Origin: Flavobacteriaceae bacterium
GTDB taxonomy: Bacteria > Bacteroidota > Bacteroidia > Flavobacteriales > Flavobacteriaceae
Direction: 5' to 3'
DNA: 64,000 bases
NCBI GenBank assembly: GCA_024643425.1
Contig: JAHEMY010000001.1
Coordinates: 9,106 to 73,105, forward strand
In this document: positions 31,281-49,434 of the stretch, in pieces
Position numbering within the stretch: position 1 is the first letter of the stretch
Layout: each line of letters begins with the position of its first letter
Notes under the pieces: model-generated
What the model saw: only the letters and a program-made list of their open reading frames with translations
What the model was told of the DNA's origin: nothing
Databases searched by the model: none
Program-made: the position numbers and the translations under genes

Positions 31281-31730
31281 GTGAGTTTACAGAATGAAAT
31301 AATGGATGCCTTAAAAACGGCGATGAAAGAAAAGAATACGGTAGCCTTGGAATCGTTGCGAGCCGTAAAATCTGCGCTTTTGTTGGCTCAAACTCAAAGT
31401 GGTGCAAAAACAGAACTTTCCGAAACTGACGAAGTAAAATTACTTCAGAAGTTAGTAAAACAACGCAAGGACAGTGCTGCTATTTTTAGTGAACAAGGAA
31501 GAAACGACTTAGCCGAGCCAGAACTGGCACAGGCAGCGGTAATCGAAAAATTTTTACCGGAGCAAATGAGCTCTGAAGAAATTGAAAAAGTAATCGAGCA
31601 AATTATATCCCAGTCAGGAGCAAACTCTATGAAAGATATGGGAAAAGTAATGGGAATGGCTAACGCCCAAATGGCTGGAAAGGCAGATGGTAAGACCATC
31701 GCTGCTTTGGTAAAAGAAAAGTTAGGGTAA
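31281..31730 (+). CDS. yqeY: GatB/YqeY domain protein
   Basis: (GTG)SLQNEIMDALKTAMKEKN...LESLRAVKSALLLAQT...; ends ...ADGKTIAALVKEKLG. Confidence 0.85.
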   Translation: MSLQNEIMDALKTAMKEKNTVALESLRAVKSALLLAQTQSGAKTELSETDEVKLLQKLVKQRKDSAAIFSEQGRNDLAEPELAQAAVIEKFLPEQMSSEEIEKVIEQIISQSGANSMKDMGKVMGMANAQMAGKADGKTIAALVKEKLG

Positions 31731-32037: not shown

Positions 32038-32670
32038 CTATCTATTGCCATAGGCAATGTGAACCCATTTAGTACTTCCACTTTCAATTACTTCTCCGAT
32101 TACTTTTACCATCTGATTTCTAAAAATCACATCTCCATTTCTCGAAGTATTCGGGAATTCAGGTTTCCCCATAACGCCATTTCGCACATTCATATCCATA
32201 TTGGAGATGTACAAATTATTTTTGGAAATTGAAGGTACACCATCCAACATGACCGGTTCATCAGGAAATCCTTTAGTATCTTCAAATTTCTTATACAAGG
32301 TTCTTCCACTGGATTCTTTTAGTTGAACATAGCCCGTTTTTGGGTACAGTGCGTTTATGTTCACAAGAGTCTTGATGTAATAATCTCCTTCTTGTCCAAA
32401 ATTTGATAAATAGCTTTTATAGGATTTAAAGGAGTTGGTTGTTTTTGCGACATTAAAATAGATACTATCTGTTGCTCTGGACAAAGCTTCTAAATGACTC
32501 TTATTCACTTCGTATAAAGAATCGATTTCGTCTTTTTGCTGCTTCAATTCGGTATTAGATTCAAGCAGCTTGGATTCACTAATCTTTAAGTCGTAGGAAT
32601 ACTTTACCACCAGGGCAAATAAAACAAAGATGGAAATGGTAAGAATGGCAACAATCGCTCTAAATTTCAT
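32038..32670 (-). CDS. Membrane-anchored coiled-coil protein with C-terminal SH3b-like domain (hypothetical)
   Basis: N-terminal TM (AIVAILTISIFVLFALVV), heptad-like stretch (SKLLESNTELKQQKDEIDSLYEV), C-terminus MNVRNGV...GDVIFRNQMVKVIGEVIESGSTKWVHIAY. A 6-bp gap separates it from the upstream gene. Confidence 0.55.
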   Translation of the reverse strand: MKFRAIVAILTISIFVLFALVVKYSYDLKISESKLLESNTELKQQKDEIDSLYEVNKSHLEALSRATDSIYFNVAKTTNSFKSYKSYLSNFGQEGDYYIKTLVNINALYPKTGYVQLKESSGRTLYKKFEDTKGFPDEPVMLDGVPSISKNNLYISNMDMNVRNGVMGKPEFPNTSRNGDVIFRNQMVKVIGEVIESGSTKWVHIAYGNR

Positions 32671-32676
32671 AGTTCT

Positions 32677-32988
32677 TTATTTTATGTGAATGGCTGCTTG
32701 CCTTCTTGATCTAATTAATACAACGATGAGTAATGCGAGTAGTACAAAAAAGCCTCCTGCGGCAAAACTTGCAATAAAATTGGCTGGATTTAACACTAAA
32801 AAAACCAAGGAGGCAATTGCAAAAACCCCCATCAGCACCATAAAAAACTTTATCACAAATTCGACGTCTTTAGAGTTTGCTTGCGCCCCAAATACATTTA
32901 TGGTTTTTTGATCGCCAATGGTTACATTTCCCTGGGACTCAATGGTGGTTCCTTCTACTGTGTTTTTTTTGGTTGTTTGTTCGGTCAT
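32677..32988 (-). CDS. Small membrane protein: N-terminal KNT..EG..GN..IGD module plus two TM helices (hypothetical)
   Basis: Residues 8-26 are KNTVEGTTIESQGNVTIGD. TM1 is FVIKFFMVLMGVFAIASLVFLVL and TM2 is FIASFAAGGFFVLLALLIVVLI, with a basic C-terminal end RSRRQ. Confidence 0.55.
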   Translation of the reverse strand: MTEQTTKKNTVEGTTIESQGNVTIGDQKTINVFGAQANSKDVEFVIKFFMVLMGVFAIASLVFLVLNPANFIASFAAGGFFVLLALLIVVLIRSRRQAAIHIK

Positions 32989-33018: not shown

Positions 33019-33474
33019 CTATCCATCTCCAAGCGTAAAGTCGCCTCCTCCTTTTATCGTAACATCCTTCATTGTATTTTTTTCATCATAGTGATCTTGA
33101 CCGGGAGCCCTATCACCAATTTTAATGTTTCCACTGATATCCAAATTAGCCCCTTCTATCGTGTTTTTTCGGGTTATCACATTATTCATCGAGGGGTTTG
33201 GTTTCTTAGATTCAGCAATCCATTTTTGAAGTTCAATTCTAAATTGATCGTCCTTGATCATTTCACTCATTACGTCCTCGACTTCTGCCTGCACTTCCGG
33301 TGATTCCGGAGCTTCTTCCATTTGTTGAATTAAGGATACCTTATCGCTTTTTTTAAACCATCCACGCATCCACTTCACCGAGCCCGAAACAAAATCGTCA
33401 ATAGCGTTATTCACCTCCTTATTCTTGGCACAAGTGTTTACTAATAATCCCAGTCCGAGGGTAATTAATTCCAT
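33019..33474 (-). CDS. Small hypothetical protein with acidic helical centre and two C-terminal KNT..G..IGD-type modules
   Basis: Hydrophobic N-terminus MELITLGLGLLV, acidic stretch EEAPESPEVQAEVEDV. Module copies are at residues 103-121 (KNTIEGANLDISGNIKIGD) and 132-150 (KNTMKDVTIKGGGDFTLGD). Confidence 0.55.
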   Translation of the reverse strand: MELITLGLGLLVNTCAKNKEVNNAIDDFVSGSVKWMRGWFKKSDKVSLIQQMEEAPESPEVQAEVEDVMSEMIKDDQFRIELQKWIAESKKPNPSMNNVITRKNTIEGANLDISGNIKIGDRAPGQDHYDEKNTMKDVTIKGGGDFTLGDG

Positions 33475-33680: not shown

Positions 33681-35060
33681 TTATGATAACAAGGTTTCAT
33701 CTAAAAAAGTCAAAAACTCATCCTTGGAGTTTTCGGGTTCGAAGAATGCATTATAGACCCAAGCACCGCGATCGAAACATTCCATTTTATATCGAATCCC
33801 AGCTTTTTTTGAAACCTTCAAATAGTATTTTTTAGACTCTTCAAGCTTGGCCAAATAAATGTTTGCTTCCGCCAAGGTTGCCCATTTACTTGCTGTGGGG
33901 TACAAATAATTTGAAGCCCCTTGTACAGCCTTCGTGGCATACTCTCTCATCTCCCTTCGATCAAGATCTAATTTTGCATATAGGAAAGCTACTTTCACTG
34001 CGTTTGTGAATATTTGTTCTTCATCATTAGTAGACAAGGCAAGTTCGTACGCTTTTTTGTAGGTGGCCAAGGTCTTTTCCCCATCTTTTTGCCCCTTACT
34101 TCTCAAGTATTGATTTCGATACAAATCTCCTAGCAATTCCAATAAATCGGGATCCTGATGTGTTTTCTTATTTTTTTCAAGTTGATGCGTAGCGTCGTCC
34201 ACTCGCCCAACAGCTTCCATTGCTTTTATGAGTTTTATGTAATTATCTTCATCCAAGTCTTCTATTTTCGGTTCCAAATCGATAATAGTCGATTCGAAAT
34301 CCTCTTTATTTCTTGGAAAGAAACTCAAAATGATATTTTCCGACATCTGTGTTTTGAAAAAAGGTGTTTGCACGCATGGGTTATCGTCGTCATCAACACA
34401 TTCTGCCGCTCTTTTTGGCACTTCTTCAAAAATGTACTCGACCACATCCATGATGCTTATTTCAGGGTCGATAAAAGGGCGTCTGTGTTTGCCGGAGAGT
34501 ACTTCCAATAAACATTGGGTAAAGAAACTTTCATTATTGTATCCATAGGATTTTTGATTATCCTGACAAGAAGCCATCACCCAAATACCCTGTTCGTCGT
34601 TTAACTTTTGGGCCATTCCATAAAGCCCTTTAATTCCTGTTTGAATCATCCCTTCAGCATGACAACAGTCTAAGAATAACACCAATCGACTCGATGGTAG
34701 TGCATTTACTTTTTCCTTCAGTTCTTCCGCAGTGACCCAGGTTTTTTTATAATTTTCAGCGGTCATTCCGTAGGGTTGCAGAAAAAACTTGTGTTCATCT
34801 CCAAACTTTCCACCATGCCCCGAGTAATAAAGAATGATCGAAGATTCTTCATTTGTTTTTTCCTTCAAGGTATCAAAGGCTTTTAGGATTCCTTGGCGGG
34901 TAGCCTTTTTTTCAGTTAGTAGAATTACATTTTCCTTTGGATACCCAACAAGTTTCTTATTTGTAATTGATTTGTACAAGTTCTGAGCATCTTTCACGGT
35001 ATAGGGTAAATCGTCCCCAACCCCTATGATTAATGCATAGGTGTTATTGCGGTTTTCCAT
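33681..35060 (-). CDS. Caspase-like (peptidase C14) protease fused to a C-terminal all-helical TPR-like domain
   Basis: YALIIGVG..., His in ILYYSGHGG (H82), Cys in VLFLDCCHAEG (C133), then WVMASCQDNQKSYG...FFTQCLLEVLSG. Residues ~275-459 are helical repeats (LLGDLYRNQY..., SKWATLAEANIYLAKLEESKKYY). Confidence 0.8.
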   Translation of the reverse strand: MENRNNTYALIIGVGDDLPYTVKDAQNLYKSITNKKLVGYPKENVILLTEKKATRQGILKAFDTLKEKTNEESSIILYYSGHGGKFGDEHKFFLQPYGMTAENYKKTWVTAEELKEKVNALPSSRLVLFLDCCHAEGMIQTGIKGLYGMAQKLNDEQGIWVMASCQDNQKSYGYNNESFFTQCLLEVLSGKHRRPFIDPEISIMDVVEYIFEEVPKRAAECVDDDDNPCVQTPFFKTQMSENIILSFFPRNKEDFESTIIDLEPKIEDLDEDNYIKLIKAMEAVGRVDDATHQLEKNKKTHQDPDLLELLGDLYRNQYLRSKGQKDGEKTLATYKKAYELALSTNDEEQIFTNAVKVAFLYAKLDLDRREMREYATKAVQGASNYLYPTASKWATLAEANIYLAKLEESKKYYLKVSKKAGIRYKMECFDRGAWVYNAFFEPENSKDEFLTFLDETLLS

Positions 35061-35095: not shown

Positions 35096-37171
35096 TCATT
35101 GCCAAAATTTCATGACACGATCAAAGATTTGGGTTTGAATATAAGGCTGAAAATGTATATCGTATTGAAAGGCTGAAGGAGTATATCTTTTTCCCGAGGC
35201 CACTGCTTTGAGCAAATAATCCATTGCTTCTTTTTCATTTCCTGCAGCAGCATAATATTGGGCCATTCCATAGTCTACCCAACCAAATTGAAAATTTGTA
35301 CGACTTGCATCCAATTTCGATAAATACCTTTGAGCCTTTTCAGAAGCTCCGAGTTTCATCGAAGCGATTGCCAAATAAGGTAAATAATTTATCGCGTCAG
35401 ACTTCTCATACAGCGCTTCATATAACTGCTCGGCTTTTCGATAATTCCCAAGATAATAATAAGCCAAAGGCAATAATTCACGCTCTTCATCTGAAATGGA
35501 ATTCCAATTTTCTTCCAAAGATTTGATTACCTGATTATAATACAGTGATGCAAAGTCACTTTTCCCTTGAATAAAAAATTCTTTCCCTGAAAACAAAGTG
35601 AATGCATGCCATCGTTCGGAGGTATTGTTCAATTTGATACTCGCTAATAAATCATCGACTGCATTCTTATTTCCATTAACAACATATGCCCTTAATAACG
35701 CTTCCTTCACCCATTCGTTACCTTTCAATCGTGAGAAAGGTTCGAGCAACTCGATTGCTTTGTCCATCTCTTTTAATTCGATATAGGCCAAGGCCATTAT
35801 ATAATTTCTAAATTCACAAGAACGGCATTTCTGAAAGTCCATATCTTTCATAGAAAGGGCATTGTAAATTCCCTCCACATCTTCCGGTTTATTGACAAAC
35901 TGCATCGCCAGTACCATAGCGCCGCTATTATTCTCCAGGTTGAAAGGTTCAATGTTGTATTCCTCCTTAAAATAAGTATAGGCATTTCTATTATTCCCTT
36001 TCAGTAAAGCATCATAAAAATTCAACAAATTCATTTGCCTCTTATTATTGCTTGTTTCTTTTGCCAATAAGTGATGGAGGGAATCTGCCACAGCGAATTG
36101 ATCTTGGTTGTAATAGTATTCAATTCGATCTACTTTTGGCTCGAAGTAATTTGGATCAATCGCTATGGCTTCGTTCAATAAGGTTAAATATTCAGGATCA
36201 ATGTTTGAATACTTTGTATGCGCTTCTAATAGCAACTGGTAGGCTTCAAAATTAGGAGGTGTTTCTTCAAATCCTATTTCACTTTCATTCTCCATGACCA
36301 AGTACCCTAAAATACGCTGTTTTAAAGCTTCAATACAATCTAAGGGTGCATTGGGGTCGCAGGTAACTGGTTCGAACGAAATAAGCGTCTTACTCATGGT
36401 ATTGTCCACAATGGAACACTGCACTAACAAGGAGCCTTTACTTAGATAATAAGTACCATTAATAATTTTTGAGGGTTTCAGATAATCTTTGAGAATTCCT
36501 TGATCACCCGCAGTGTTTTTTGAAGCCAACATGACGCTGGAATAATCTTCAATTATTTTAGGGGATATTACCTGCCCCACTTTATTTTGTGTAATCCCAT
36601 GCATAATCCAATCGACCGCCATCTTCCCTACAACATCTAACTTATCGTTAAGGGTATTATTTTCAAATTTTAAAACCGCTATTTTATTTCCCTCTTCAGG
36701 AGTATTTAATAAAGGAATTCCGGCAACTGCGGTTTCACCTGGCTCCACAAAGTTCGCGCGCACAATCAATGAAGCCGACAATAGTGCGATCATAGAGATC
36801 ACTAAAAGGAACGTAAAATACATGCGTTGGAAATTGCTTCTAAAGCGAAATCCAAGAATAGTTTTTGAATTTTTCTTATTCAACTCAATGGCAGATTTTG
36901 CTGAAGCTTTTCGGGGTCGAGCACCTGAAGCCTCCTCCATGCCATGATCTTTCAAAGGTTTTAAACGAAATTTCCAGATTAAATAAACATAGAACGGAAA
37001 CCCAATTAATAGGACAAGAAGAAGGTAAGTCATTGCTAATTTGGGTAAACCGAAAGGTTCTCGAAGCACAGACAACACTTGAAGCAACAACCAACTAGAA
37101 ACAAGGTAAATAGAAAGGTTTTTAAAAACCTCTTTCTCATGACATTCATTAAAAAAATCCTTTATTTTCAT
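35096..37171 (-). CDS. Membrane-anchored TPR-repeat protein with TolB-N/FlgO-like juxtamembrane module
   Basis: Three TM segments in the first ~140 aa, then IAVLKFENNTLNDKLDVVGKMAVDWIMHGI, then ~400 aa of TPR-like helices. It ends 35 bp before the caspase gene start. Confidence 0.65.
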   Translation of the reverse strand: MKIKDFFNECHEKEVFKNLSIYLVSSWLLLQVLSVLREPFGLPKLAMTYLLLVLLIGFPFYVYLIWKFRLKPLKDHGMEEASGARPRKASAKSAIELNKKNSKTILGFRFRSNFQRMYFTFLLVISMIALLSASLIVRANFVEPGETAVAGIPLLNTPEEGNKIAVLKFENNTLNDKLDVVGKMAVDWIMHGITQNKVGQVISPKIIEDYSSVMLASKNTAGDQGILKDYLKPSKIINGTYYLSKGSLLVQCSIVDNTMSKTLISFEPVTCDPNAPLDCIEALKQRILGYLVMENESEIGFEETPPNFEAYQLLLEAHTKYSNIDPEYLTLLNEAIAIDPNYFEPKVDRIEYYYNQDQFAVADSLHHLLAKETSNNKRQMNLLNFYDALLKGNNRNAYTYFKEEYNIEPFNLENNSGAMVLAMQFVNKPEDVEGIYNALSMKDMDFQKCRSCEFRNYIMALAYIELKEMDKAIELLEPFSRLKGNEWVKEALLRAYVVNGNKNAVDDLLASIKLNNTSERWHAFTLFSGKEFFIQGKSDFASLYYNQVIKSLEENWNSISDEERELLPLAYYYLGNYRKAEQLYEALYEKSDAINYLPYLAIASMKLGASEKAQRYLSKLDASRTNFQFGWVDYGMAQYYAAAGNEKEAMDYLLKAVASGKRYTPSAFQYDIHFQPYIQTQIFDRVMKFWQ

Positions 37172-37570: not shown

Positions 37571-37602
37571 AAAAAAAAGAGGCGATTGTATCGCCTCTTT
37601 TT
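37571..37602. terminator. Bidirectional rho-independent terminator (ends the dcw operon after ftsZ)
   Basis: 8-A run, stem agaggcga/tcgcctct, loop ttgta, T-run. Confidence 0.85.
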
Positions 37603-37643: not shown

Positions 37644-39686
37644 TTAGTCTACATTATCGTGTAAGAAAGAATTGTTTGAGCGCAAATCAATATCGTCATC
37701 ATCTGTATTTACGGAAGTTCTTGATAATTTTGTATCCTCCGAACTCGTATCGTCCAATTCGATTCCCATTCTTTTATAAGCCGGTTGCTTTTCAATGTCT
37801 TCAATCTTGGAAGCACTATTTCTAAACTTATAGTTAAACTCCTTCATTTTCCGCTTTCGTTCTTCCGTGCGATCACTTAATAATTTGGAAATTGGTGAAT
37901 TAATAGGATCTGCAGGCTCGTTAGAATTTCCTTCTTTTTCAGGCGCTTCAACCGTTTTGGTTTTAAACTGAAGTGCTTCTTCTGCCACTTCTTTCGATTC
38001 TTTTGGCTTCGCATTATTAAGTTGCTCTTCCATTTCTTCGTAATCGTCTAAACTATAGCGCTTCACTCCTTTATCGGAGATCTCAGTAATAGGAATAATC
38101 TCCACAGCTTTTACCTCAATATCTTCAATTTTTCGAACCAAAAGCTCAGGTTCGTCTTCCACTTTTTGAACCTCTCTAGATTTTGTCTTTTTGGGTCCAT
38201 CACTCTTTCTTTGAATTGGTAGATCAAACATCAACATTTGTTCATCCATGGGTTCCTCTACAAACTCATCCGATTCTTCCACCATTTTTTGCGGTAAATC
38301 CTCTTTGAGTTCAACAATTTCAAAATCGTTCACATCAATTTCATTGATTTGCAACTGCTGAAATTCGGCCAAGTAGTGAATGTCTACATAACTTGCATCC
38401 ACAGGCAGGTTTTTTAGAAATTCTGAAGTCTCAATATATCCTTCAAAGGGCAATTCTTTTTCTGAGGTTTGCTCTTGATTTGAAGATGTATGTTCTTCCT
38501 CTTCAAAATCTACTTCAAACAAGGTATGACGAATTACAGGTGCTTCTTCAACTTCAACTTCAGCCTCTGGCGCATCTACTGTTTCCTCTTCTATTATTGG
38601 ATCTTTATCTAAAGCAGGGCTTAGGTTGTGTACCGCCTTTTGCTCGTCCTCAAGTGTATGGATGATTTTCTTAGCCTCCGTATTTACGATTTCATTTTGT
38701 TGTTCTGCATTAAACCCCGTGGCGATTACTGTAATGGAAATTGCTCCTTCCAAGGTATCATCTTCTCCAACCCCCATTATGATGTTAGCGCTATGACCGG
38801 CTTCTTCCTGAATATGGTCGCTAATTTCTCCAATTTCATCGATGGTAATTTCCTCCGTCCCAGAGACAATAAGAAGCAATACGTTTTTCGCACCCTTAAT
38901 TTTATTATCATTTAGAAGGGGCGAATCGAGGGCTTTATTAATAGCATCCTTGGCGCGGTTTGAACCAATGGCAGTTGAACTTCCCATAATAGCAGTTCCA
39001 CTATCCGCTAAAACCGTCTTTGCATCTCTAAGGTCAATGTTTTGTGTGTAATGATGTGTAATTACCTCTGCAATACCTCGAGCTGCAGTAGCCAACACTT
39101 CATCTGCTTTTGAGAAACCTGCTTTGAATCCAAGATTCCCATACACCTCACGTAATTTATTGTTATTGATAACAATAAGAGAATCAACATTATTTCTCAA
39201 GTTTTCAACTCCAATATGGGCTTGGTCATTTCGTAGTTTCCCTTCAAACTGAAAAGGAATGGTTACAATACCAACGGTAAGAATATCCAATTCTTTGGCC
39301 ATACGGGCAATAATAGGTGCAGCTCCTGTTCCCGTACCACCTCCCATTCCGGCAGTAATGAAAATCATTTTTGTATTGGTAGAAAGCATTTCTCTAATTT
39401 CTTCCATGCTTTCTACCGCAGACTGCTCACCAATTTTAGGGTTCGCGCCTGCTCCTAATCCTTCGGTTAACGACACCCCCAATTGAATTTTAACGGGGAC
39501 CGGACTGTTTTCCAAAGCTTGAGAATCGGTGTTACAAATAACAAAATCAACGCCTTTAATCCCCTGACTAAACATGTGATTAATGGCATTACTTCCTCCT
39601 CCACCTACGCCTATAACCTTAATAACATTGGATTGGTTCTTTGGCAGGTCGAAGGAAATGTTGTCAAATTCTGTGTTGCTGCTCAT
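37644..39686 (-). CDS. ftsZ: Cell division protein FtsZ with ~330-aa acidic linker
   Basis: GVGGGGSNAINHM, the tubulin signature GMGGGTGTGAAP, and the C-terminal peptide ...NNSFLHDNVD. Confidence 0.95.
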   Translation of the reverse strand: MSSNTEFDNISFDLPKNQSNVIKVIGVGGGGSNAINHMFSQGIKGVDFVICNTDSQALENSPVPVKIQLGVSLTEGLGAGANPKIGEQSAVESMEEIREMLSTNTKMIFITAGMGGGTGTGAAPIIARMAKELDILTVGIVTIPFQFEGKLRNDQAHIGVENLRNNVDSLIVINNNKLREVYGNLGFKAGFSKADEVLATAARGIAEVITHHYTQNIDLRDAKTVLADSGTAIMGSSTAIGSNRAKDAINKALDSPLLNDNKIKGAKNVLLLIVSGTEEITIDEIGEISDHIQEEAGHSANIIMGVGEDDTLEGAISITVIATGFNAEQQNEIVNTEAKKIIHTLEDEQKAVHNLSPALDKDPIIEEETVDAPEAEVEVEEAPVIRHTLFEVDFEEEEHTSSNQEQTSEKELPFEGYIETSEFLKNLPVDASYVDIHYLAEFQQLQINEIDVNDFEIVELKEDLPQKMVEESDEFVEEPMDEQMLMFDLPIQRKSDGPKKTKSREVQKVEDEPELLVRKIEDIEVKAVEIIPITEISDKGVKRYSLDDYEEMEEQLNNAKPKESKEVAEEALQFKTKTVEAPEKEGNSNEPADPINSPISKLLSDRTEERKRKMKEFNYKFRNSASKIEDIEKQPAYKRMGIELDDTSSEDTKLSRTSVNTDDDDIDLRSNNSFLHDNVD

Positions 39687-39719: not shown

Positions 39720-41060
39720 TTATTCTGCATTATCAAGGAATTCTTTAAATTTTTCAGCCCATCTGTCAAAGAATCGTTTTCCACCACTGGTCTGCGGCTC
39801 TTTATAGGTTTTTTCATTTACATCGGCTTCAATTTCTGAACCATCATTTTCTTTAGATCCTTCGGATTCATCGGGTATAATTGGAGCCTGGTTTTTTATT
39901 TTACTGTTTAAACTACTCAACACCAATCCAACTGCCGTGGCATACATAGGGCTGGTTGTTTCGCTATCGCTGTCTCCGGCAAGATGTTCATTTGGATATC
40001 CTATACGTGTATCCATTCCGGTAATGTACTCCACCAATTGTTTCAGGTGTTTCAGTTGAGCTCCCCCTCCAGTGAGTACTATTCCGGCAATCAACTTCTT
40101 TTTTTGTTCTTCATGACCGTAGTTCTTTATTTCGAGGTAGGCCTGTTCAATAATTTCAACAACCCGGGCATGGATAATTTTTGAAAGATTTTTCAGCGTA
40201 ATCTCCTTAGGTTCTCGCCCTCGTAATCCCGGAATCGAAACTATTTCATTGTCTTTATTCTCGCCCGGCCATGCTGAACCAAATTTAATTTTAAGCAGCT
40301 CGGCTTGCTTTTCGATAATCGAACATCCTTCTTTGATGTCTTCAGTAATCACATTCCCTCCAAAAGGGATCACAGCGGTATGCCTGATTATACCATCTTT
40401 AAAAATGGCTAAATCTGTAGTACCACCACCGATATCGATCAATGCTACTCCCGCTTCCTTCTCCTCCTGGCTTAAGACAGCATTTGCCGATGCCAATGGC
40501 TCCAGTGTGATTCCCGACAATTCTAATCCGGCACTTTTAACGCAACGTCCTATGTTTCTTATCGATGAAACCTGTCCTACTACCACATGAAAATTTGCTT
40601 CCAAACGACCTCCATACATTCCTATGGGTTCCTTTATTTCAGCCTGCCCATCGACCTTATAATCCTGGGGTAACACATGGATAATTTCTTCTCCGGGTAG
40701 CATCACCAATTTATGGACCTGGTTACACAGGCGATCGATATCCTCGTCATCAATTACTTCATCACTATTGGCACGCGTTATATAATCACTGTGTTGTAAA
40801 CTACGGATATGCTGTCCGGCGATGCCTACAACAACATCCTGTATTTTCATACCTGAGGAAGTTTCAGCATCTTGAACTGCCTGCTGAATGGATTGAATGG
40901 TTTGGGTGATATTATTTACCACTCCTCTATGAACTCCAAGGCTTTTGGACTTTCCAATGCCCAGGATTTCCATTTTGCCATAATCGTTTTTACGACCAAT
41001 CATTGCCACAATCTTTGTGGTCCCAATATCCAATCCTACGGCAATGTTTTGATTTTCCAT
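39720..41060 (-). CDS. ftsA: Cell division protein FtsA
   Basis: Actin-fold motifs (VGLDIGTTKIVAMIG, ALIDIGGGTTDLAIF, GIVLTGGGAQL). Confidence 0.9.
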   Translation of the reverse strand: MENQNIAVGLDIGTTKIVAMIGRKNDYGKMEILGIGKSKSLGVHRGVVNNITQTIQSIQQAVQDAETSSGMKIQDVVVGIAGQHIRSLQHSDYITRANSDEVIDDEDIDRLCNQVHKLVMLPGEEIIHVLPQDYKVDGQAEIKEPIGMYGGRLEANFHVVVGQVSSIRNIGRCVKSAGLELSGITLEPLASANAVLSQEEKEAGVALIDIGGGTTDLAIFKDGIIRHTAVIPFGGNVITEDIKEGCSIIEKQAELLKIKFGSAWPGENKDNEIVSIPGLRGREPKEITLKNLSKIIHARVVEIIEQAYLEIKNYGHEEQKKKLIAGIVLTGGGAQLKHLKQLVEYITGMDTRIGYPNEHLAGDSDSETTSPMYATAVGLVLSSLNSKIKNQAPIIPDESEGSKENDGSEIEADVNEKTYKEPQTSGGKRFFDRWAEKFKEFLDNAE

Positions 41061-41062
41061 GA

Positions 41063-41779
41063 TTATATTTTTGACGCAACTACCTGGTTTCCAAATCTTA
41101 AATCAACCAGCTGATACTCTGCACTTTTATTATCCTTTTTTATTTTCTGAAAAAACGCCTTAAAATTTTTAAACTTTACCTCCATATTTTCTATGGAACC
41201 GAATAGCACTTTAAAACTTTGTTTTCTCAAATTCAGAATTACCTCTCCGTTTTGCTTTTCATGAATTCCGGTCACCAATTGATTCAAAACTGAATCGTTC
41301 TTTATTTTAATCAGCAATGGTGTTAATTCAGTAAAACCATTTTTCGAGCTTCCTGAAATCAGAGGGACCCTCGCCGAATACACATTGGATAGGGGCATCT
41401 CTTTTCCGTCTTCATCAATATAATAATTGGCCGAACCTGCCACTCGAGCAATGGGATTTCGTTGTTCAATTTGTGCTCCCAATACACCATCAATTGTAAC
41501 AAAAACCTGAGCTTTCCGCACCATAGGGTTTTGTCTTAGCCTCCCTTCCATCTCTTTCAAAACTAAAGTTTCTTTAGGGATGCTCGTAATTGAGTCATTA
41601 CTTTGTATTAACAATTTATTAACCGTTGCCAGCGTAATAAAAGGTTGATGATCGTCTACAAAATTGATCTTCACATCGGTGATATTTCGACGTTCGTTCC
41701 GTTGTTTTGCAAAACTCATTAAAAAAGCCACTAAACCAAGCAAAACAAAGAGTTTTATGATGCCCCAATTAATTCTCAT
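41063..41779 (-). CDS. ftsQ: Cell division protein FtsQ-like
   Basis: A single N-terminal TM, a POTRA-like region, and its position between murC and ftsA. Confidence 0.7.
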   Translation of the reverse strand: MRINWGIIKLFVLLGLVAFLMSFAKQRNERRNITDVKINFVDDHQPFITLATVNKLLIQSNDSITSIPKETLVLKEMEGRLRQNPMVRKAQVFVTIDGVLGAQIEQRNPIARVAGSANYYIDEDGKEMPLSNVYSARVPLISGSSKNGFTELTPLLIKIKNDSVLNQLVTGIHEKQNGEVILNLRKQSFKVLFGSIENMEVKFKNFKAFFQKIKKDNKSAEYQLVDLRFGNQVVASKI

Positions 41780-43124
41780 GGCTTAGATATTTAGTTATTT
41801 TCATTACTTCCGTTCCGATATCTCCGGCACCCACCATAAGTTTAATCTTACATGAGGACCGATCTATTTTTTCGATTAATTCTTCACGACGCACCAATGC
41901 CTTTTTCGGGTTTGAAATTTGTTTCAATAACCATAACGAATTCACACCATCCATAGGCAATTCCCTTGCGGGATAAATATCCATAAGCAGCACTTCATCA
42001 AATTGCGATAAACTTGCAGCAAATGCCTCGGCGAAATCTCTAGTTCGGCTAAATAAATGCGGTTGAAATACAATGAGTTTTTCCTCGTTTGGGTACATTT
42101 CCGTAACCGCTTGATAAAGGGCATTAATCTCTGTTGGATGATGCGCATAATCATCGATTAATACCAAATCTTCCGTTTTTATTCGGTAAGAAAATCGACG
42201 TTGAACACCTTTAAAAGATAACAAAGCTTTGGGCAGGCCGGGTAATGGGGTTCCCGCAATTATGGCCATACCCAAAGCTGTTACCGCATTTTGTAGGTTA
42301 TGATGTCCGGGCAGTAAAAATTTTAAATTATATAGAACTTCGTTAGGTGTTTTTAGGTTAAAAATATAGGCGCCATCTTCAATACGAACGTCTTGAGCTT
42401 CGTAGTCGGCCGTTTCATTTACACCTACCTCTTTTCCGTTTAAGGGCAATCCTTTCTTCACAAGAAGATGTTCCCGATTAGGCACCAAATCTGCAAAGTC
42501 TTTAAAGGATTTTTCCAATTCACTTGCTGCGCCATAGATATCCAAATGATCTGCATCCATAGAGGTTACACAAGCAATTGTTGGATGTAATTGCATAAAA
42601 GAACGGTCAAATTCATCGGCCTCCACCACCGTAATTGCATCGCCATTATAGATAAAATTGGATTGATAATTTTCTGCAATTCCTCCTAAAAATGCCGTGA
42701 CCGGCATTCCCGAAGCGGCCAACAAATGCCCTAAGATGGCTGAAGTGGTAGTTTTTCCATGCGTTCCGGCTACCGCGATACAGGTGGAGTCTTTGGTAAT
42801 CTCCCCCAAAAGTTTGGCTCTTTTTACGACCTCAAAATCATGAGTTCGAAAATAGTCCATGAGCCTACTGTCTTTTGGAATGGCCGGTGTATAAACCACT
42901 AAAGTGTTTTCTTTTGAAAGCTTATAATCGGCCAACACCTCCGGATGATCATCGAAAGTGATAATCATTCCTTCAGCAATGAGTTGCTCTGTGAGCTCCG
43001 AGGGTGTTTTATCGTATCCGTAGATTGTTTTGTTGAATTTATTTGCATAACGAGCCAATGCACTCATACCAATCCCTCCGATTCCGACGAAATACAATTG
43101 CGTTATGTTGGCGAATGGCTTCAT
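41769..43124 (-). CDS. murC: UDP-N-acetylmuramate--L-alanine ligase
   Basis: [36 protein letters not shown]. Confidence 0.9.
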
Positions 43125-44218
43125 CGAGGCTCGTTTAACAATTTTTGTATTTCCGAAACAATTGCTTTGGTCGCATTTGGTTTGGCTAGCTTTTTAATGT
43201 TGGAAGACAATTTATTTTGCAGGCTTTCATCGTCCATTAATTCCTTAAATCTCAAAGTAAACTGCGTACTTAACTCTGACTCTTTCAACATAATAGCAGC
43301 ATCCTGACCAACAATGGAAGCAGCATTCTTAGTTTGATGATCTTCTGCTACATTGGGCGAAGGAATAAAAATCACCGGCTTTCCGACCAAGCAAAGTTCT
43401 GATACAGAAAGCGCACCTGCTCTTGATATAATAAAATCGGCAGCTGCATAAGCCAAATCCATCTTATTTAGAAAAGCATGCACTTGCACTTCACCATGGC
43501 TATATCCCTTATAACTTTCAAAATAATATTTACCACACTGCCAGATTACTTGAACTCCCAAATCTTTAAACATTTCCAGGGAATCATAAATAAGCTGGTT
43601 GATTCTTCCGGCCCCTAAACTACCGCCTAAAACCAGCAGTGTCTTTTTTGATTTATCCAATTGGAAAAACTCCAAAGCTTCATTTCTTTTCGAAGCGATT
43701 TCCAAAAGATCTTGTCGTACCGGATTGCCTGTCTCCACAATCTTTTCCGCTGGAAAAAAACGATCCATATTTGGATAAGCCACACATATTTTTCGAACTC
43801 TTTTGCTAAGCCATTTATTTGTTATTCCTGCATGGCTATTTTGTTCTTGAATTAAACAAGGGAGCTTTCGCATCGAAGCTACCCGTAGTAGTGGTGCACT
43901 TGCATATCCTCCCGTACCAATCGCGACATCCGGTTTAAATGCATTGATTATTTTTCGAGATCTTATCAGGCTTGACGCCAACTTTAACGGAAATGCTAAA
44001 TTCTGCAATTTCAAATTTCTCTGAAGTCCAGAAATCCAAAGGCCTTCTATTTTAAATCCGTTTTGAGGCACCTTTTCCATTTCCATTCGATCCTTGGCAC
44101 CTACAAATAAAAATTCGGCAGTTGGGTATTGCAATTGCAACTCTTTTGCAATGGCAATAGCCGGGTAGATATGACCTCCCGTCCCTCCTCCTGATATGAT
44201 AAATTTATAAGGCTTCAC
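43121..44218 (-). CDS. murG: Undecaprenyldiphospho-muramoylpentapeptide beta-N-acetylglucosaminyltransferase
   Basis: [17 protein letters not shown]..., [12 protein letters not shown], ...EDHQTKNA. Confidence 0.9.
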
Positions 44219-45395
44219 TTAATATATCTAATGGATTCTCTTCCTTTTCTTCTTTCAATACTACTTCTCGTTTGGCACTTACACTCAAAATCATTCCCAA
44301 GGCTAAACAGGTCATCCAAATGGAAGTACCCCCACTTGAAATTAGTGGCAAGGTCTGCCCGGTTACCGGAAACAATTCAACAGCAACCGCCATATTGATA
44401 AGCGCTTGAAAAATAATGGGTAAGCCAACACCCACAACCATTAACTTTCCGAAAAAGGAAGTGCTTTTATGTACTACGATCACTAAACGAAATAACAGCA
44501 ACAAATAAAGAAACAATAGAAATAAGGCTCCCGCCAAACCAAACTCTTCAACAATTACGGCGTAAATGAAATCGGAAGAAGATTGCGGCAAGAAATTCTT
44601 TTGAACACTCTTCCCGGGTCCTAAACCAAATACACTCCCCGAAGCAATGGCGATTTTGGCTTTTTCAATTTGGTAATCGGCTTCGGTATCCTTTTTGTCC
44701 GTAAAATTTTCAATTCGACTCATCCAGGTATCCACGCGGTTCGGGAATACACCGGGAAATGCTTTTGCACTTAGCACGAAAAGAGTTAGAAGAACAAGTC
44801 CCGCACCCAGAACAATGCCTAAATAACGTAAAGGATATCCTCCGATAAATACCAAGACGACTACCATCGTAAAGATGATGGCCGTAGTTGAGAAATTCGC
44901 CGGTAAGATCAATGCCAAAACTAAAAATACCGGTGTCCACAGAGGTAATAAAGTCTCTTTGAAAGTAACTTCCTTATCTTTTATTCTTGATAAATACCGC
45001 GCAACGTAGGTAAGTAAAACAACAGACGCCAAAGTAGAAGTTTGGAAAGTGACCCCAACAAAAGGAACTCGAATCCAACGACTCGCATTTGCTCCATCGA
45101 TTGTGGTTCCTTGGCTTAAGGTTATTAAAAGCAAGACAACCACTATAGGCAAAGCAATAATCGACAAACCTTTAAAATAATGGTAGGGAATTTTATGGAC
45201 CCCATACAAAATGGCGAATCCCAATAATAAATGCGCAAAATGTTTAATTAAAAATTTAAAGGTATTTCCATCCCCATACATATAAGCCAGGTTACTACTT
45301 GCACTGTAAACCGGCAAAAATGAAAATAAGGCCAAAACGCCTACTACGGCCCAAATCGCTCTATCTCCTTGTATGTAATGAAACAAATTTTTCAT
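44205..45395 (-). CDS. ftsW: FtsW/RodA/SpoVE-family peptidoglycan glycosyltransferase
   Basis: A 10-TM SEDS pattern with ...[18 protein letters not shown]... Position in the dcw cluster. Confidence 0.85.
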
Positions 45396-46732
45396 TATAA
45401 ATTTCTTACGGCATTTTTAAATTGTCTTCCTCGGTCCTCGTAATTTTCAAAAAGATCGAAGCTTGCACAAGCCGGAGACAACAACACGGTATCTCCTTTT
45501 TCAGATAAGCGATAGGCAACTTGAACCGCATCTTGCATGCTTTCAGTTTGCACCAGCATATCCACTACATTACCAAAAGCGTTGATGATCTTATCATTAT
45601 CCACACCTACACAAATAATGGCCTTTACTTTTTCATTAACCAAGGGAAGTAATTCGGTATAATCATTCCCCTTATCTACTCCTCCTACAAGCCATACCGT
45701 AGGACCTTCCATACTTTCCAGTGCATAATACGTTGCGTTTACATTGGTAGCCTTGGAATCGTTGATGTACAAGACATTATTAATTTTCAATACGTTTTCC
45801 AAACGATGTTCAACCCCTTGAAAATGTTCCATCGATTGTCGGATGGTATCTTTGCGAATGCGCAATAAGGTGGCTACAGTCGAGGCTGCCATAGCATTTT
45901 TTAAATTGTGATTTCCGCTTAGTGCAAGTGTTGATATTGGCATAGTGAATGTGTTATGTTCTGTTTTTATTATGATTTGTTTGTTTTCTAAATAAGCGCC
46001 CTTTTCAAGTTTCTTTTCAATTGAAAAAGGCAATTTTTGAGCGGCAATAGGATGGTTTGAAAGCCATGTATTAATAAATTCGTTGTCTGCATCGTATATG
46101 AAATAATCTTCCGGACCTTGATTCATTGTAATTCTAAATTTGGAAGCGATGTATTCATTCATATCGTAATGATATCGATCCAAATGGTCGGGTGAAATAT
46201 TTGTAAGCACTGCGATGTGAGGCTTAAAACTTTCGATTCCGTCCAACTGAAAACTGCTTATTTCCAAAACGTAATTCTCATAATTACCCTCTGCAACCAG
46301 CTGCGCGAAACTTTTTCCAATATTTCCTCCCAATGCAACATTCAATCCCCCCTGCTCCAATAGATAATGTGTTAAGGTTGCCGTGGTGGTTTTGCCGTTG
46401 CTACCGGTTATACCAACCATTGTTGCTTTGGTGTACTGCGCTGCAAATTCAATTTCTGAAATCACAGGAATCCCAGCTTTTTTTAGCTGAAGCACTACAG
46501 GTGCTTCATCTTTAATTCCCGGACTTTTCATTACCACATCGGCATTCATAATTTTCGCTTCTGAATGACCTTCCTCTTCCCATTCCAACTCATGATGTAA
46601 AAGAACTTGTTTATAAGTTTCTTTTATTTTACCGAAGTCTGAAACAAAGACTTCAAATCCTTTTTGTTTTCCCAAAATGGCAGTCCCTACGCCACTTTCT
46701 CCTGCACCCAATATCACTAATCGCTTGCCCAC
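45395..46732 (-). CDS. murD: UDP-N-acetylmuramoylalanine--D-glutamate ligase
   Basis: ILGAGESGVG, GITGSNGKTTTA, ...NDSKATNV. Confidence 0.9.
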   Translation of the reverse strand: MGKRLVILGAGESGVGTAILGKQKGFEVFVSDFGKIKETYKQVLLHHELEWEEEGHSEAKIMNADVVMKSPGIKDEAPVVLQLKKAGIPVISEIEFAAQYTKATMVGITGSNGKTTTATLTHYLLEQGGLNVALGGNIGKSFAQLVAEGNYENYVLEISSFQLDGIESFKPHIAVLTNISPDHLDRYHYDMNEYIASKFRITMNQGPEDYFIYDADNEFINTWLSNHPIAAQKLPFSIEKKLEKGAYLENKQIIIKTEHNTFTMPISTLALSGNHNLKNAMAASTVATLLRIRKDTIRQSMEHFQGVEHRLENVLKINNVLYINDSKATNVNATYYALESMEGPTVWLVGGVDKGNDYTELLPLVNEKVKAIICVGVDNDKIINAFGNVVDMLVQTESMQDAVQVAYRLSEKGDTVLLSPACASFDLFENYEDRGRQFKNAVRNL

Positions 46733-46733
46733 A

Positions 46734-47969
46734 CTATCTAATTTTTAGTGTGACTATCGTCACCACAGCCAGCACAATACCTACAATCCAAAAACGAGTC
46801 ACAATCTTGCTTTCATGATACCCCTTCACCTGATAGTGATGATGCAGGGGAGACATTCTGAAAATCCGCCGTCCCTCCCCATATTTCTTTCGCGTGTATT
46901 TAAACCAACCCACCTGCAATACCACCGATAAATTTTCTAAAAGGAATATTCCACATAGAATCGGGATCAACCATTCCTTGCGAATAGCAATGGCAATAAC
47001 CGCAATGATTCCACCAATGGTAAGACTCCCGGTATCGCCCATAAAAACTTGTGCCGGATAGGCATTGTACCATAAAAACCCAATAAGGGCTCCCACAAAG
47101 GCCATGATAAAAATGGTGAGCTCCCCGGTATTTGGGATGTACATAATGTTTAAGTAATCCGAAAAAACAAGGTTTCCCGATACCCAGGCAAAAATTGCAA
47201 GGGTCACTCCAATTATGGCCGAAGTACCCGCAGCGAGTCCATCAATTCCATCGGTAAGGTTGGCTCCGTTCGACACGGCGGTGATGATAAAAATTACAAT
47301 TGGGATAAAAACAAGCCATGCATACGGTTTGTATTTTTCTCCCGCCCATGTAACTAATTTTTCATAGTTGATTTCATTGTTTTTAACAAAGGGAAGTGTG
47401 GTTAGCAGTGTCTTTTCTTCTTCATAAAAGTCGGCACTAACACTAGTATTCTGTCCCACCTCTTGCGTTTGAACCACCTCTAGTTTCTGACGTCTTACCG
47501 TAATATCTTCATGAAAATACATGGTTGCTCCCACAATAATTCCCAAACCAACTTGGCCAAATACTTTGAATTTCCCGGGCAGTCCTTCTTTATCCTTTTT
47601 AAACTTTTTAATATAATCATCAATAAACCCGATAATCCCCATCCAGATGGTAGTGACTAACAGCATGATGACATAGATGTTTTCCAATTTTGCAAACAAC
47701 AATACAGGAACAATCGTTGCCAGAATAATAATAATACCTCCCATGGTTGGGGTTCCTGCCTTTTCACTTTGTCCTTCCAAACCTAAGTTGCGAATAGTCT
47801 CACCTACTTGTTTTTTCTGAAGAAATGCAATGATTTTTTTACCATAGACCGTAGCAATCACCAAGGAGAGAATCACAGCAAGTGCTGCACGGAAAGTGAT
47901 GAACTGAAAAAGTCCGGCTCCTGGGATGTCGTAGGTTTTATCGAGAAAGTCAAATAGGTAATACAGCAT
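46734..47969 (-). CDS. mraY: Phospho-N-acetylmuramoyl-pentapeptide transferase
   Basis: ...TPTMGG..., [24 protein letters not shown]. Confidence 0.9.
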
Positions 47970-47970
47970 G

Positions 47971-49434
47971 CTATTTGTTTAGATCGGTTAATAGTTCGTT
48001 CACAATTTTATAGTCGTCAAAATCAAAGCGTTCACCCCGAATTTCCTGGTACGTTTCGTGTCCTTTGCCTGCTACTAAAATGATATCTCCTGCTTCTGCC
48101 ATTGCACAAGCGGTTTTGATGGCTTGTCTACGATTTGTAATAGATATCGTTTTTTTAAAATGTTCTGCCGGCACTCCTTTTTCAATTGCTTGGATGATAA
48201 GCTCAGGGTCTTCGTTACGGGGGTTGTCGCTAGTAAAAATTACTTTTGTGCTTAAGATGGAGGCAATCTGACCCATTTTAGGGCGCTTTTCGGCATCTCG
48301 ATTTCCACCACAACCCACGACTGTAATCAAATTTTCATTTCCGGTGCGAATAGAATTTATGGTCTCAAGGACGTTCTTTAAAGCGTCCGGCGTATGGGCA
48401 TAATCTACTATGGCCGTAATTTTTGTGGGAGAGATTGCATATTGAAAGCGTCCATCCACACTTTCTAAGGTGCTCATCAATTGAAGGATTTCCAACGATT
48501 CAATCCCTAGCAAATCGGCTGTCGCATAGATTGCCAATAAATTATAGGCATTGAAACTTCCTATGAGTCGTGTCCATAATTCATGTCCGTTTATCTTTAG
48601 CAGTAGGCCGTTAAATTGATTTTCAAGTATCTGTGCTTTGTAATCGGCAAACGACTTTAGCGCATACATATACTTCTTCGCCTTAGTATTTTGGAGCATA
48701 ACGGGCCCATTCTTATCGTCGGCGTTTGAAATGGCAAAAGCGGATTTTGGCAGCTGATCAAAAAATGACTTCTTTACGTCTCGATATTCTTTGAAATCTT
48801 TATGATAGTCTAAATGATCGTGAGAAAGATTGGTGAAGATTCCCCCCCGGAAATTTAATGCATGCGTTCGAAACTGATGAATTCCGTGTGAACTCACCTC
48901 CATAAAGCAATAAGTTACACCGGAATCTACCATCGCTCTTAGGTGGCGATTTATGGTTAACGAATCCGGCGTAGTATGGGTAGATGGAATGATCTCATCA
49001 CCAATACGAATATTCACCGTAGAAATTAATCCGGCAATGTATCCAGCTTTCTGGAACAGATGATACAACAAGGTACTTACCGTGGTTTTTCCGTTGGTAC
49101 CGGTAATCCCAATGAGCTGAAGAGATTCTGAAGGATTCTCATAATAATTTGCCGCCATATAGGCCAATGCTCTTTGCGAATTATCGACCTGTACGTAAGT
49201 AATACCGTTGATAATCACTTCCGGAAGTTCCTCGCAAATAATGCACAAGGCACCTTGATTACAAGCATTGGTGATATATTCATGGCCGTCGGATAGTGTC
49301 CCTTTTATTGCAACGAAGACATCATTTAACCCAACCTTTCGCGAATCGAACTCTATGTTCCTAATCGCTACAGAAGTAGTCCCTACCACCTTTTCAAGGG
49401 TAACTTTATAGAGTATGTCTTTTAAAAGAATCAC
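47971..49434 (-). CDS. murE: UDP-N-acetylmuramoyl-L-alanyl-D-glutamate--2,6-diaminopimelate ligase
   Basis: [11 protein letters not shown], ...[19 protein letters not shown]. Confidence 0.9.

Follow-up and report, generated by a model that had tools for sequence, protein, structure and literature searches.

We analysed a stretch of 64,000 nucleotides from a Flavobacteriaceae bacterium (assembly GCA_024643425.1, contig JAHEMY010000001.1, positions 9,106 to 73,105), which we call the window. Gene B on its minus strand encodes an N-terminal caspase-like protease with an intact His/Cys dyad, fused to a C-terminal helical domain that resembles the TPR-S family. Gene B lies in a small cassette, with the membrane protein gene A upstream and genes C, D and E downstream. 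Our preferred reading, held with moderate confidence, is that B acts as executioner or activator protease in a conflict cassette of Flavobacteriaceae, gated by its TPR-S domain and probably specific for Arg or Lys. The gene looks like a derived, TIR-less offshoot of a TIR-linked immune effector, not like a housekeeping protease.

A caspase-like protease with an intact catalytic dyad

Gene B and the features of its protease domain are located as follows (aa, amino acids):

33681..35060, minus strand: gene B, caspase-like protease with TPR-S domain, 459 aa, ATG start, one stop
34416..35039, minus strand: Peptidase_C14 (caspase/metacaspase fold), residues 8-215; the fold continues to about residue 250
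34989..34991, minus strand: codon of Asp24 (TVKDA), aligned with the Asp of the metacaspase motif C(I/V)NDA, S1 pocket
34815..34817, minus strand: codon of catalytic His82 (YYSGHGG), aligned with the SGHG His of Yca1 and AtMC4
34668..34670, minus strand: codon of Asp131 (LD-C-C-H), the Asp of the metacaspase motif D-x-C-H-S-G and second acidic S1 residue
34662..34664, minus strand: codon of catalytic Cys133 (LDCCHAEG), aligned with the Cys of DSCHSG in AtMC4
34593..34634, minus strand: conserved loop of residues 143-156 shortly behind the catalytic Cys, where caspases have the L2/intersubunit linker

A first-pass annotation had proposed this gene as a Peptidase_C14 protease with an intact dyad. 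Its open reading frame (ORF), the codon coordinates of H82 and C133 and all quoted peptides prove correct (YALIIGVG, YYSGHGG, LDCCHAEG, SCQ...FFTQCLLEVLSG, DLEPKIEDLDEDN, LLGDLYRNQY, TLATYKKAYELA, IFTNAVKVAFLYAKL, SKWATLAEANIYLAKLEESKKYY and RYKMECFDRGAWVY). The proposed protease domain is found as well. Residues 8-215 match Pfam Peptidase_C14 (PF00656) with an E-value of 1.1e-19 (71.5 bits, cutoff 21.4), and the generic 'caspase' model of PADLOC matches at 6.4e-15. The nearest NCBIfam model is caspase_w_EACC1 (NF047832), for which B scores 76.7 bits (E 1.6e-21), below the cutoff of 140. A profile built from 11 B orthologs matches metacaspase structures at E 5e-8.

To place individual residues, B was aligned with HMMER to the metacaspases Yca1 (4F6O), AtMC4 (6W8S) and that of C. 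glabrata (7QP0). H82, C133, D24 and D131 are all invariant among 49 aligned orthologs of the short form, that is, orthologs with the caspase-TPR-S architecture of B. More than 260 homologs are found at E <= 1e-5, and orthologs of the same length are 53-85% identical to B. The Cys motif D[CS]C[HY][AS] is present in 120/120 homologs, the catalytic His in 119. The sole homolog cluster in which the His is replaced (P0033, 460 aa, 62% identical to B) reads SGQG, through a sequencing error or as a naturally inactive variant. Judged from the sequence, the domain content of B is far beyond chance.

The AlphaFold2 model of full-length B has a predicted local distance difference test score (pLDDT) of 85.6 and a predicted template-modelling score (pTM) of 0.68. 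It shows a caspase alpha/beta sandwich followed by a helical domain. Foldseek matches of the model include the bacterial caspase-like protein GSU0716 (3BIJ, 6e-8), Yca1 (4F6O) and yeast metacaspases, and the MALT1 paracaspase. B is hence predicted to have the caspase-hemoglobinase fold. The loop of residues 143-156 is the sole segment with a pLDDT below 50, and A150, Q151 and L153 in it are invariant. The loop contains no conserved Arg or Lys, hence no conserved autoprocessing site is evident.

In metacaspases the aspartates equivalent to D24 and D131 line an S1 pocket that accepts a basic P1 residue. By alignment, B has acidic S1 positions of this metacaspase/orthocaspase type, and D24 may have a part in Arg/Lys specificity. 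Cleavage after Arg is found in the bacterial defence caspases characterised to date, the caspase of type IV Thoeris (10.1101/2024.10.24.620036) and LcCaspase (PMC12642450). From the two acidic S1 residues of B and the Arg specificity of these proteases we propose that B cleaves after Arg or Lys.

The C-terminal domain

The second half of B contains two nested features:

33684..34298, minus strand: all-helical TPR-S domain, residues 255-459, from AlphaFold2 and Pfam
34029-34235, minus strand: Pfam TPR-S match (PF20308), residues 276-344

The first-pass annotation had described this region as all-helical, which agrees with the model. Built from 21 diverse orthologous domains, the AlphaFold2 model of the 205 residues (about 255-459) is a TPR solenoid of 11 helices (pLDDT 95.9, pTM 0.90). 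The annotation had also likened the region to the TPR domain of DUF4071, the MAP3K TRAFs-binding family. This comparison stands as far as the TPR module and its fold are concerned, but the Pfam family is a different one: TPR-S (PF20308, 'Tetratricopeptide Repeats-Sensor'). B scores 27.0 bits at full length and 27.7-28.0 bits as an isolated domain (cutoff 27.6), and all 21 ortholog domains match (best E 3e-17). Membership in DUF4071/MAP3K_TRAF_bd (PF13281) is rejected: B reaches 14.5 bits (E 0.018), below the cutoff of 24.1, and 2 of the 21 orthologs match.

The structural comparison nonetheless supports a resemblance to PF13281. The match with the top TM-score is the central regulatory region of ASK1 (5ULM; TMq 0.69, root-mean-square deviation 4.7 Å, 221 columns, 17% identity), which is the structural archetype of PF13281, whereas generic TPRs such as LGN, KLC and designed TPRs reach about 0.5. 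The Foldseek E-values for the domain are all only about 1e-3. A sequence search of the PDB with the C-terminal profile returned designed TPR/PPR proteins only and did not find ASK1. Hence the link to ASK1 is seen only at the level of the fold.

The two family models meet in a ThsI-like protein. ThsI, described as 'CMP hydrolase and TPR', is activated by cyclic ADP-ribose (cADPR), and its TPR is the proposed sensor (10.64898/2025.12.03.692087). With a type VIII Thoeris TIR sequence (Table S1 of this Sorek-lab survey) we found a system on the Escherichia coli plasmid NZ_CP147111.1, where the gene abutting the type VIII-like TIR is annotated in RefSeq as 'TRAFs-binding domain-containing protein'. 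This ThsI-like protein matches both models, TPR-S with 64.5 bits (residues 192-302) and MAP3K_TRAF_bd with 31.2 bits (240-332), and the weak PF13281 match of B lies at equivalent profile positions (206-251). Both models exceed their thresholds on overlapping residues of the ThsI-like protein; they therefore cover overlapping parts of one bacterial module. Going by the profile scores, TPR-S is the better-fitting label for the C-terminal domain of B.

The plasmid locus also encodes a SLATT_1/SLATT_3 (DUF4231) protein (L080:4609-5472) and another TIR. ThsH-like and ThsI-like effectors therefore seem to be united at this locus, an arrangement reported in the survey preprint for rare operons.

TPR-S proteins and TIR signalling

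A homolog search with the C-terminal profile gave only 4 short proteins, and an exhaustive search of representative sequences was used instead. With the TPR-S domain of B as the profile it returned 545 representative clusters at E <= 1e-3. All 99 full-length representatives that were sampled match TPR-S. At least 55 of them carry an alpha/beta-hydrolase, and only 7 match a caspase model. The N-terminal hydrolase models among the 99 proteins are Abhydrolase_6 (55), PGAP1 (48) and DUF676 (25).

We scanned 80 metagenomic hydrolase-TPR-S loci with a small hidden Markov model (HMM) of TIR. A TIR ORF is present in 34 of the 80 loci, and in 16 of the 23 loci that are at least 9 kb long. The same HMM has 0 matches in 386 kb of control DNA (the window and unrelated loci). 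The TIRs of the hydrolase-TPR-S loci keep the catalytic Glu. Burroughs & Aravind (2020), as cited in 10.64898/2025.12.03.692087, predicted that this TPR takes part in TIR signalling. The TIR linkage across the family and the ThsI survey together lead us to regard TPR-S as a module of TIR-dependent, Thoeris-type effectors.

At about ten metagenome loci the TIR match falls within the hydrolase-TPR-S ORF itself, which is about 600-630 aa long (L120, L122, L135, L138, L139, L145, L148, L152, L154 and L160). These ORFs suggest fusions of alpha/beta-hydrolase, TPR-S and TIR in a single chain, which would unite the signal generator, the sensor and the effector.

Hydrolase-TPR-S proteins share a residue signature that the window's clade has largely lost. 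Among 91 of these proteins, in the numbering of B, the signature consists of G308 (86/91), G312 (89/91), R313 (88/91), K315 (91/91), R316 (90/91), W318 (78/91), Y352 (89/91) and N356 (91/91). At these positions the B of the window has E308, D312, L313, R315, N316, Y318, T352 and K356. It is typical of its clade: G308, G312, R313, R316 and Y352, each conserved in at least 94% of the 91 proteins, occur in 0 of 68 short forms. The short forms carry E or N308, D312, L313, N316 and T or L352 instead, with K356 in 46 of 68, and keep only a basic residue at 315 and an aromatic one at 318. The long forms described below mostly keep the signature.

The cassette in the window

Gene B is the second of five minus-strand genes, A-B-C-D-E, that form a local unit. 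The other members and the boundary on the ftsZ side are:

35096..37171, minus strand: gene A, 691 aa, three N-terminal transmembrane segments and a large TPR region, 35-bp gap to B
33019..33474, minus strand: gene C, 151 aa, soluble, conserved helix at the N-terminus and two KN...G[GN]x[IL]GD motifs in the C-terminal part
32677..32988, minus strand: gene D, 103 aa, one N-terminal KN...GNVTIGD motif, then two transmembrane helices with an AAGG patch
32038..32670, minus strand: gene E, 210 aa, N-terminal transmembrane anchor, coiled coil and C-terminal domain (GYVQL...VRNG...)
37574..37602, minus strand: terminator-like hairpin with a 13-bp stem and a T-run, between ftsZ and gene A

The cassette is inserted between the ftsZ-side cluster and yqeY (31281-31730, plus strand), and the hairpin parts it from the ftsZ/dcw operon. 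Base composition gives no clear island signature (GC content 0.355-0.385 inside, 0.34-0.43 in the flanks). A gap of 206 bp lies before gene C; it is AT-rich and contains a Bacteroidetes-type -7 box, read by eye, which suggests that C-D-E may be a separate transcription unit. A scan with the sigma-70 consensus, which is unsuited to Bacteroidota, found promoters at background level (17 found, 18.8 expected). PADLOC v2 holds no model for TPR-S proteins, A, C, D, E or the x169 and PGDYG proteins of related loci.

Gene A has TPR matches in Pfam and NCBIfam. C and D match nothing in Pfam, NCBIfam or PADLOC, so the candidates EACC1, Trypco/Pepco and SLATT are rejected for both. The 87 homolog clusters of C are equally without a Pfam match; orthologs of C stand in L001, L002 and L009. 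A 19-residue motif, KN-x(9-10)-G[GN]x[IKT][IL]GD, is common to the two proteins. It occurs twice in the tail of C (residues 103-121 and 132-150) and once in the head of D (8-26), and tblastn finds the similarity in both directions (C against the D region, E 3e-4; D against the C region, E 6e-5). The shared motif may mediate beta-strand pairing between C and D. In the C-like protein P0335, 3-4 copies of the motif are fused to the adaptor domain EAD11.

C and D also travel alone. A pair 50% and 47% identical to that of the window stands with a transmembrane-anchored protein in a Bacteroidales metagenome-assembled genome (JAFGBL010000291.1, L078:6870-8260) and in L079, and no A, caspase or TIR is found near the pair at these two loci. 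C and D therefore constitute an autonomous module.

The C-terminal domain of E (window 32047-32244; GYVQL...VRNG...W..I.Y) recurs at the end of TIR430, a TIR-transmembrane protein of Leeuwenhoekiella (L006:10678-11970, E 7e-4) with one transmembrane segment at residues 196-220. The domain looks SH3b-like by eye, an assignment that we do not make, as it is supported by no profile. It has a weak paralogous match in the window, in the ORF at 18721-19590 (E 0.007). On the other side of the cassette, the ftsZ product (37644-39686, minus strand) is unusually long at 680 aa, and its C-terminal half is acidic and of low complexity. The co-directional ORFs that follow ftsA (39720-41060), and with it extend over 39720-51425 on the minus strand, look by their arrangement like the rest of a dcw (cell-division/cell-wall) cluster.

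Short and long forms across Flavobacteriaceae

The proteins of the cassette were searched by tblastn against 58 Flavobacteriaceae loci. Gene A lies directly upstream of B, or of x169 in long-form loci, in all but two cases with upstream DNA. It is absent in L032 and displaced by about 5 kb in L045, L047 and L052. No A was found at the non-flavobacterial TPR-S loci. In Muriicola and relatives A is tandemly duplicated upstream of B (L002, L011, L012, L013, L015, L018, L021 and L033), with copies that are 44-53% identical to the A of the window. Such duplication is the diversification expected of a sensor or specificity component.

The place of the cassette in the genome varies. Its flanks differ by genus and include an ABC transporter, molybdopterin enzymes, thrS-infC-rpmI-rplT and others; those in Gilvibacter, Muriicola, Lentiprolixibacter, Lacinutrix and Leeuwenhoekiella are unrelated. 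The closest reference genome, Flavobacteriaceae bacterium Ww87 (L007:137-10818, B 70% identical), has the order ftsA-ftsZ-A-B-yqeY as in the window. C, D and E are missing from it at the otherwise identical site, which suggests recent gain or loss of the content of this slot.

What follows B varies as well. The slot holds C, D and E in the window, in Gilvibacter, in Muriicola jejuensis and in L009. Elsewhere it holds a 300-aa protein with a TIR and two transmembrane helices (TIR-2TM) plus E, a module of two transmembrane helices (2-TM) alone plus E, or nothing. The 2-TM module with its C-terminal helix stands alone (134-142 aa) in eight other loci and has no match to SLATT or any other Pfam family. 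E follows every kind of slot occupant and in most variants is the last gene of the cassette.

Leeuwenhoekiella, Lacinutrix, Lutibacter, Altibacter and others carry a long form of B. This protein of about 730-750 aa has the architecture caspase-alpha/beta-hydrolase-TPR-S, and its caspase is 40-47% identical to B. The gene order is A, a small transmembrane protein, B, a PGDYG protein, one or two TIR-transmembrane proteins and an E-like protein. In the long-form B of Lacinutrix (P0072) the alpha/beta-hydrolase, residues 292-514, has a weak match to LmuA of PADLOC, the lipase-type effector of Lamassu (E 8.6e-8), which is the top match of this hydrolase among defence models.

The two forms differ in their TIR neighbours. 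A TIR is present in 19 of 28 long-form loci, with the catalytic Glu kept, compared with 7 of 29 short-form loci. In the three short-form TIR-2TM proteins that were aligned (L003:9499-10401, L012:8462-9370 and L020:8467-9396) this Glu is replaced by Gln or Asp. The 64-kb window contains no TIR. The short form has changed in three respects at once: it has no hydrolase domain, its TIR neighbours are missing or degenerate, and most of the TPR-S signature is replaced. Yet across genera the short form keeps its length, its dyad and many invariant positions in both domains, which argues for continued function.

Hydrolase-TPR-S proteins are widespread, hence the parsimonious order of events leads from hydrolase-TPR-S to caspase-hydrolase-TPR-S and on to caspase-TPR-S. 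We infer this order from parsimony, not from a phylogeny.

Comparison with known systems

For the C-terminal half of B the closest known system is type VIII Thoeris. ThsI has, like B, a C-terminal TPR-S behind an N-terminal effector, and its TPR is the presumed sensor of a TIR-made signal. In ThsI the effector is a cytidine monophosphate (CMP) hydrolase next to a cADPR-producing TIR, whereas B is a protease in a window without TIR; B is not a ThsI. The TPR domains of B and the ThsI-like protein are remote (hhalign probability 30%, E 5.6e-4). The ThsI-like protein and the rest of the TPR-S family keep Y352 and N356; the window's clade lacks Y352 and often N356. Compared with type VIII Thoeris, the membrane protein A is an extra constant component of the B cassette.

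The N-terminal half has its counterpart in type IV Thoeris. Here PsCaspase is switched on by N7-cADPR, which a TIR produces, and degrades many proteins (10.1101/2024.10.24.620036). ThsE/PsCaspase (Rousset et al.) shares with B the combination of Peptidase_C14 with a C-terminal regulatory domain. We reject B as a type IV Thoeris caspase: the type IV-like caspase of L082, with 324 aa, lacks TPR-S and is 23% identical to B over the protease domain only, and a TIR is absent from the window.

Alpha/beta-hydrolase-TPR-S proteins make up the bulk of PF20308 and have the same TPR-S as B at E <= 1e-20. The hydrolase domain that they and the long forms contain is entirely absent in B, and in the clade of B the TIR neighbours are absent or catalytically degenerate. 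B has neither a kinase nor a PH domain, and its biological context differs from that of ASK1/MAP3K5 (5ULM).

Other caspase systems resemble parts of the cassette. In EACC1-caspase systems (PMC7159879, PMC12642450) a caspase with a variable C-terminal domain stands beside small membrane proteins, as in the window, and EACC1 is turned into a pore by its caspase (PMC12642450). However, EACC1 lies 5' of its caspase, whereas the gene upstream of B encodes a 691-aa transmembrane TPR protein. B as an EACC1-caspase system is rejected, with no EACC1 match in any neighbour (Pfam, E <= 1) and the NF047832 score below its cutoff. Caspases are also paired with alpha/beta-hydrolases (PMC7159879); LcCaspase cleaves its alpha/beta-hydrolase zymogen, LcHydrolase, between R and G (PMC12642450). 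The long-form B has the same pairing in one polypeptide, while the B of the window has no hydrolase. A bacterial gasdermin system is rejected as well, as A, C, D and E have no gasdermin match in Pfam or PADLOC.

B joins the effector logic of type IV Thoeris, a caspase, to the sensor module of type VIII, TPR-S, and to a membrane TPR partner; in the window this combination is uncoupled from TIR. Full-text literature searches returned no description of such a cassette and none for 'TPR-S' or 'PF20308'. The original definition of TPR-S lies outside the literature searched, so an earlier computational listing of caspase-TPR-S proteins is possible.

Proposed mechanism and alternative explanations

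We propose that B is a cytoplasmic protease of the caspase/metacaspase fold, probably cleaving after Arg or Lys. TPR-S would hold B inactive until a ligand-induced rearrangement or oligomerisation releases it. The active protease would then cleave cellular proteins, adjacent membrane proteins or both, leading to growth arrest or death of the infected cell. A and B would be the core of the cassette, with a variable slot downstream and, in most cases, the membrane-anchored E at its end. The most likely ancestor of the lineage is a TIR-linked alpha/beta-hydrolase-TPR-S effector. This would next have gained the N-terminal caspase, giving the long form with intact TIR neighbours, and the window's clade would then have lost the hydrolase, the TIR signal generator and most signature residues of TPR-S. 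The altered TPR-S and the missing TIR suggest that the trigger in this clade is no longer a locally made nucleotide. Partner A may supply it, or a TIR encoded at another place in the genome. As the always-present partner, A is the obvious candidate input.

We read the cassette as a conflict system because it stands at different genomic places, sister loci carry a TIR in the slot and the TPR-S family is TIR-linked. The first-pass annotation had placed the gene among conflict effectors rather than in housekeeping proteolysis, and on these grounds we agree. Several observations weigh against our reading. The window locus has no TIR and the clade lacks most TPR-S signature residues, so that the analogy to Thoeris signalling may not apply to B. 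The TPR-S score of the window's B (27.0-28.0 bits) lies at the threshold of 27.6. The flanks in the window are housekeeping genes, ftsZ and yqeY, and the cassette is not represented among the models of PADLOC v2. The TPR region of A is predicted to be periplasmic, by hydropathy and the positive-inside rule only, whereas B would be cytoplasmic; coupling between them would therefore need the short cytoplasmic segments of A. Finally, C and D are also found where there is no protease, and the slot of several A-B loci is empty. Hence C and D are not obligatory substrates.

Three more specific mechanisms can be set beside this proposal. If B were a strict Thoeris-type effector, a TIR elsewhere in the genome would make a nucleotide derived from nicotinamide adenine dinucleotide on infection, TPR-S would bind it, and the caspase would degrade proteins promiscuously after Arg. 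B shares TPR-S with the type VIII-like ThsI effector, the family is TIR-linked, long-form relatives have intact TIR neighbours, and in type IV a caspase-like protease is indeed switched on by a TIR signal. We still think this unlikely. No TIR lies within 64 kb, the short-form TIRs that were checked carry Q or D for the catalytic Glu, and the most conserved TPR-S residues, two Arg among them, are replaced in 68/68 short forms; nor is B an ortholog of the type IV caspase, given 23% identity and a type IV-like caspase that lacks TPR-S. The trigger could instead act at the envelope, for instance through phage adsorption, DNA injection or damage to the cell wall. The short-form A-B would then be a so far unrecognised, TIR-independent caspase immune system, in which A senses the event and signals across the membrane to a re-purposed TPR-S, and the freed Arg/Lys-specific caspase processes C/D, 2-TM or TIR-2TM proteins into pores. 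We regard this as a speculative possibility with the odds against it. If true, it would be a bacterial 'receptor - caspase - pore' pathway, derived from a Thoeris-type nucleotide sensor that was rewired to a protein-protein switch. B might also be a dedicated activator that cleaves C, D or both, removing the N-terminal beta-motif of D and freeing a 2-TM pore-forming toxin, in the manner of caspase-EACC1 and protease-gasdermin modules. The slot beside B does hold membrane proteins (D, the 2-TM module, TIR-2TM), and the soluble head of D with its two transmembrane helices and glycine patch recalls the layout of EACC1 (PMC7159879, PMC12642450). The top NCBIfam match of the caspase is the EACC1-associated type, and one C-like protein carries a fused EAD11, an adaptor domain of conflict systems. 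Yet Pfam shows no EACC1, gasdermin or Trypco/Pepco match among the neighbours, and with 76.7 bits the caspase falls far short of the NCBIfam cutoff of 140. L078 has C and D but no protease, the slot is empty at some A-B loci, 2-TM-only slot proteins show no obvious removable domain, and the AT-rich 206-bp gap with its by-eye -7 box suggests that C-D-E may be transcribed on their own. We doubt, then, that activation of C and D is the dedicated role of B.

Two further readings deny a role in conflict. B could serve in housekeeping or regulation, for example as a protease that controls the envelope or cell division. A-B does stand between ftsZ and yqeY in both the window and L007, both A and E belong to the envelope, beside the cassette no known defence genes were noticed, and the orthologs are widespread within one bacterial family. 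But a strong terminator parts the cassette from ftsZ, and the flanks in Gilvibacter, Muriicola, Lentiprolixibacter, Lacinutrix and Leeuwenhoekiella are unrelated. In many genomes the slot carries TIR proteins, and the TPR-S family as a whole is TIR-linked. Variable content, a duplicated A and a swapped effector are typical of conflict systems, which makes a housekeeping role quite improbable. Lastly, the short form could be what is left, without a function, of a long, TIR-linked system in decay: the hydrolase domain, the TIR partner and the TPR-S signature are gone, and some loci have nothing downstream. We consider decay very improbable, however: more than 60 clusters across several genera share the same length, the dyad is 100% intact in the 68 short forms, and many positions in both domains are invariant. 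Together with the retained A, this is a pattern of purifying selection and not of decay.

Significance

Caspase-like proteases and TIR signalling are two pillars common to bacterial and animal innate immunity. To our knowledge, type IV Thoeris is the only characterised system so far that links the two. The locus described here and its relatives would be a second, independent joining of a caspase with a sensor domain of TIR pathways, TPR-S, which in bacteria is the counterpart of the TPR of ASK1/DUF4071. Though not categorically new, the finding is a well-defined case that experiments can address.

Its relatives form a natural series: hydrolase-TPR-S with TIR, caspase-hydrolase-TPR-S with TIR, and caspase-TPR-S without TIR. 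This series lets one ask what TPR-S binds and how a nucleotide-gated effector may get rewired to a new trigger. If B is indeed Arg/Lys-specific and ligand-gated, it may be useful as a switchable protease. For the marine Flavobacteriaceae, which current defence-system models cover poorly, the cassette adds candidate defence genes: the membrane TPR protein A, the C/D pair with its shared beta-motif, and E.

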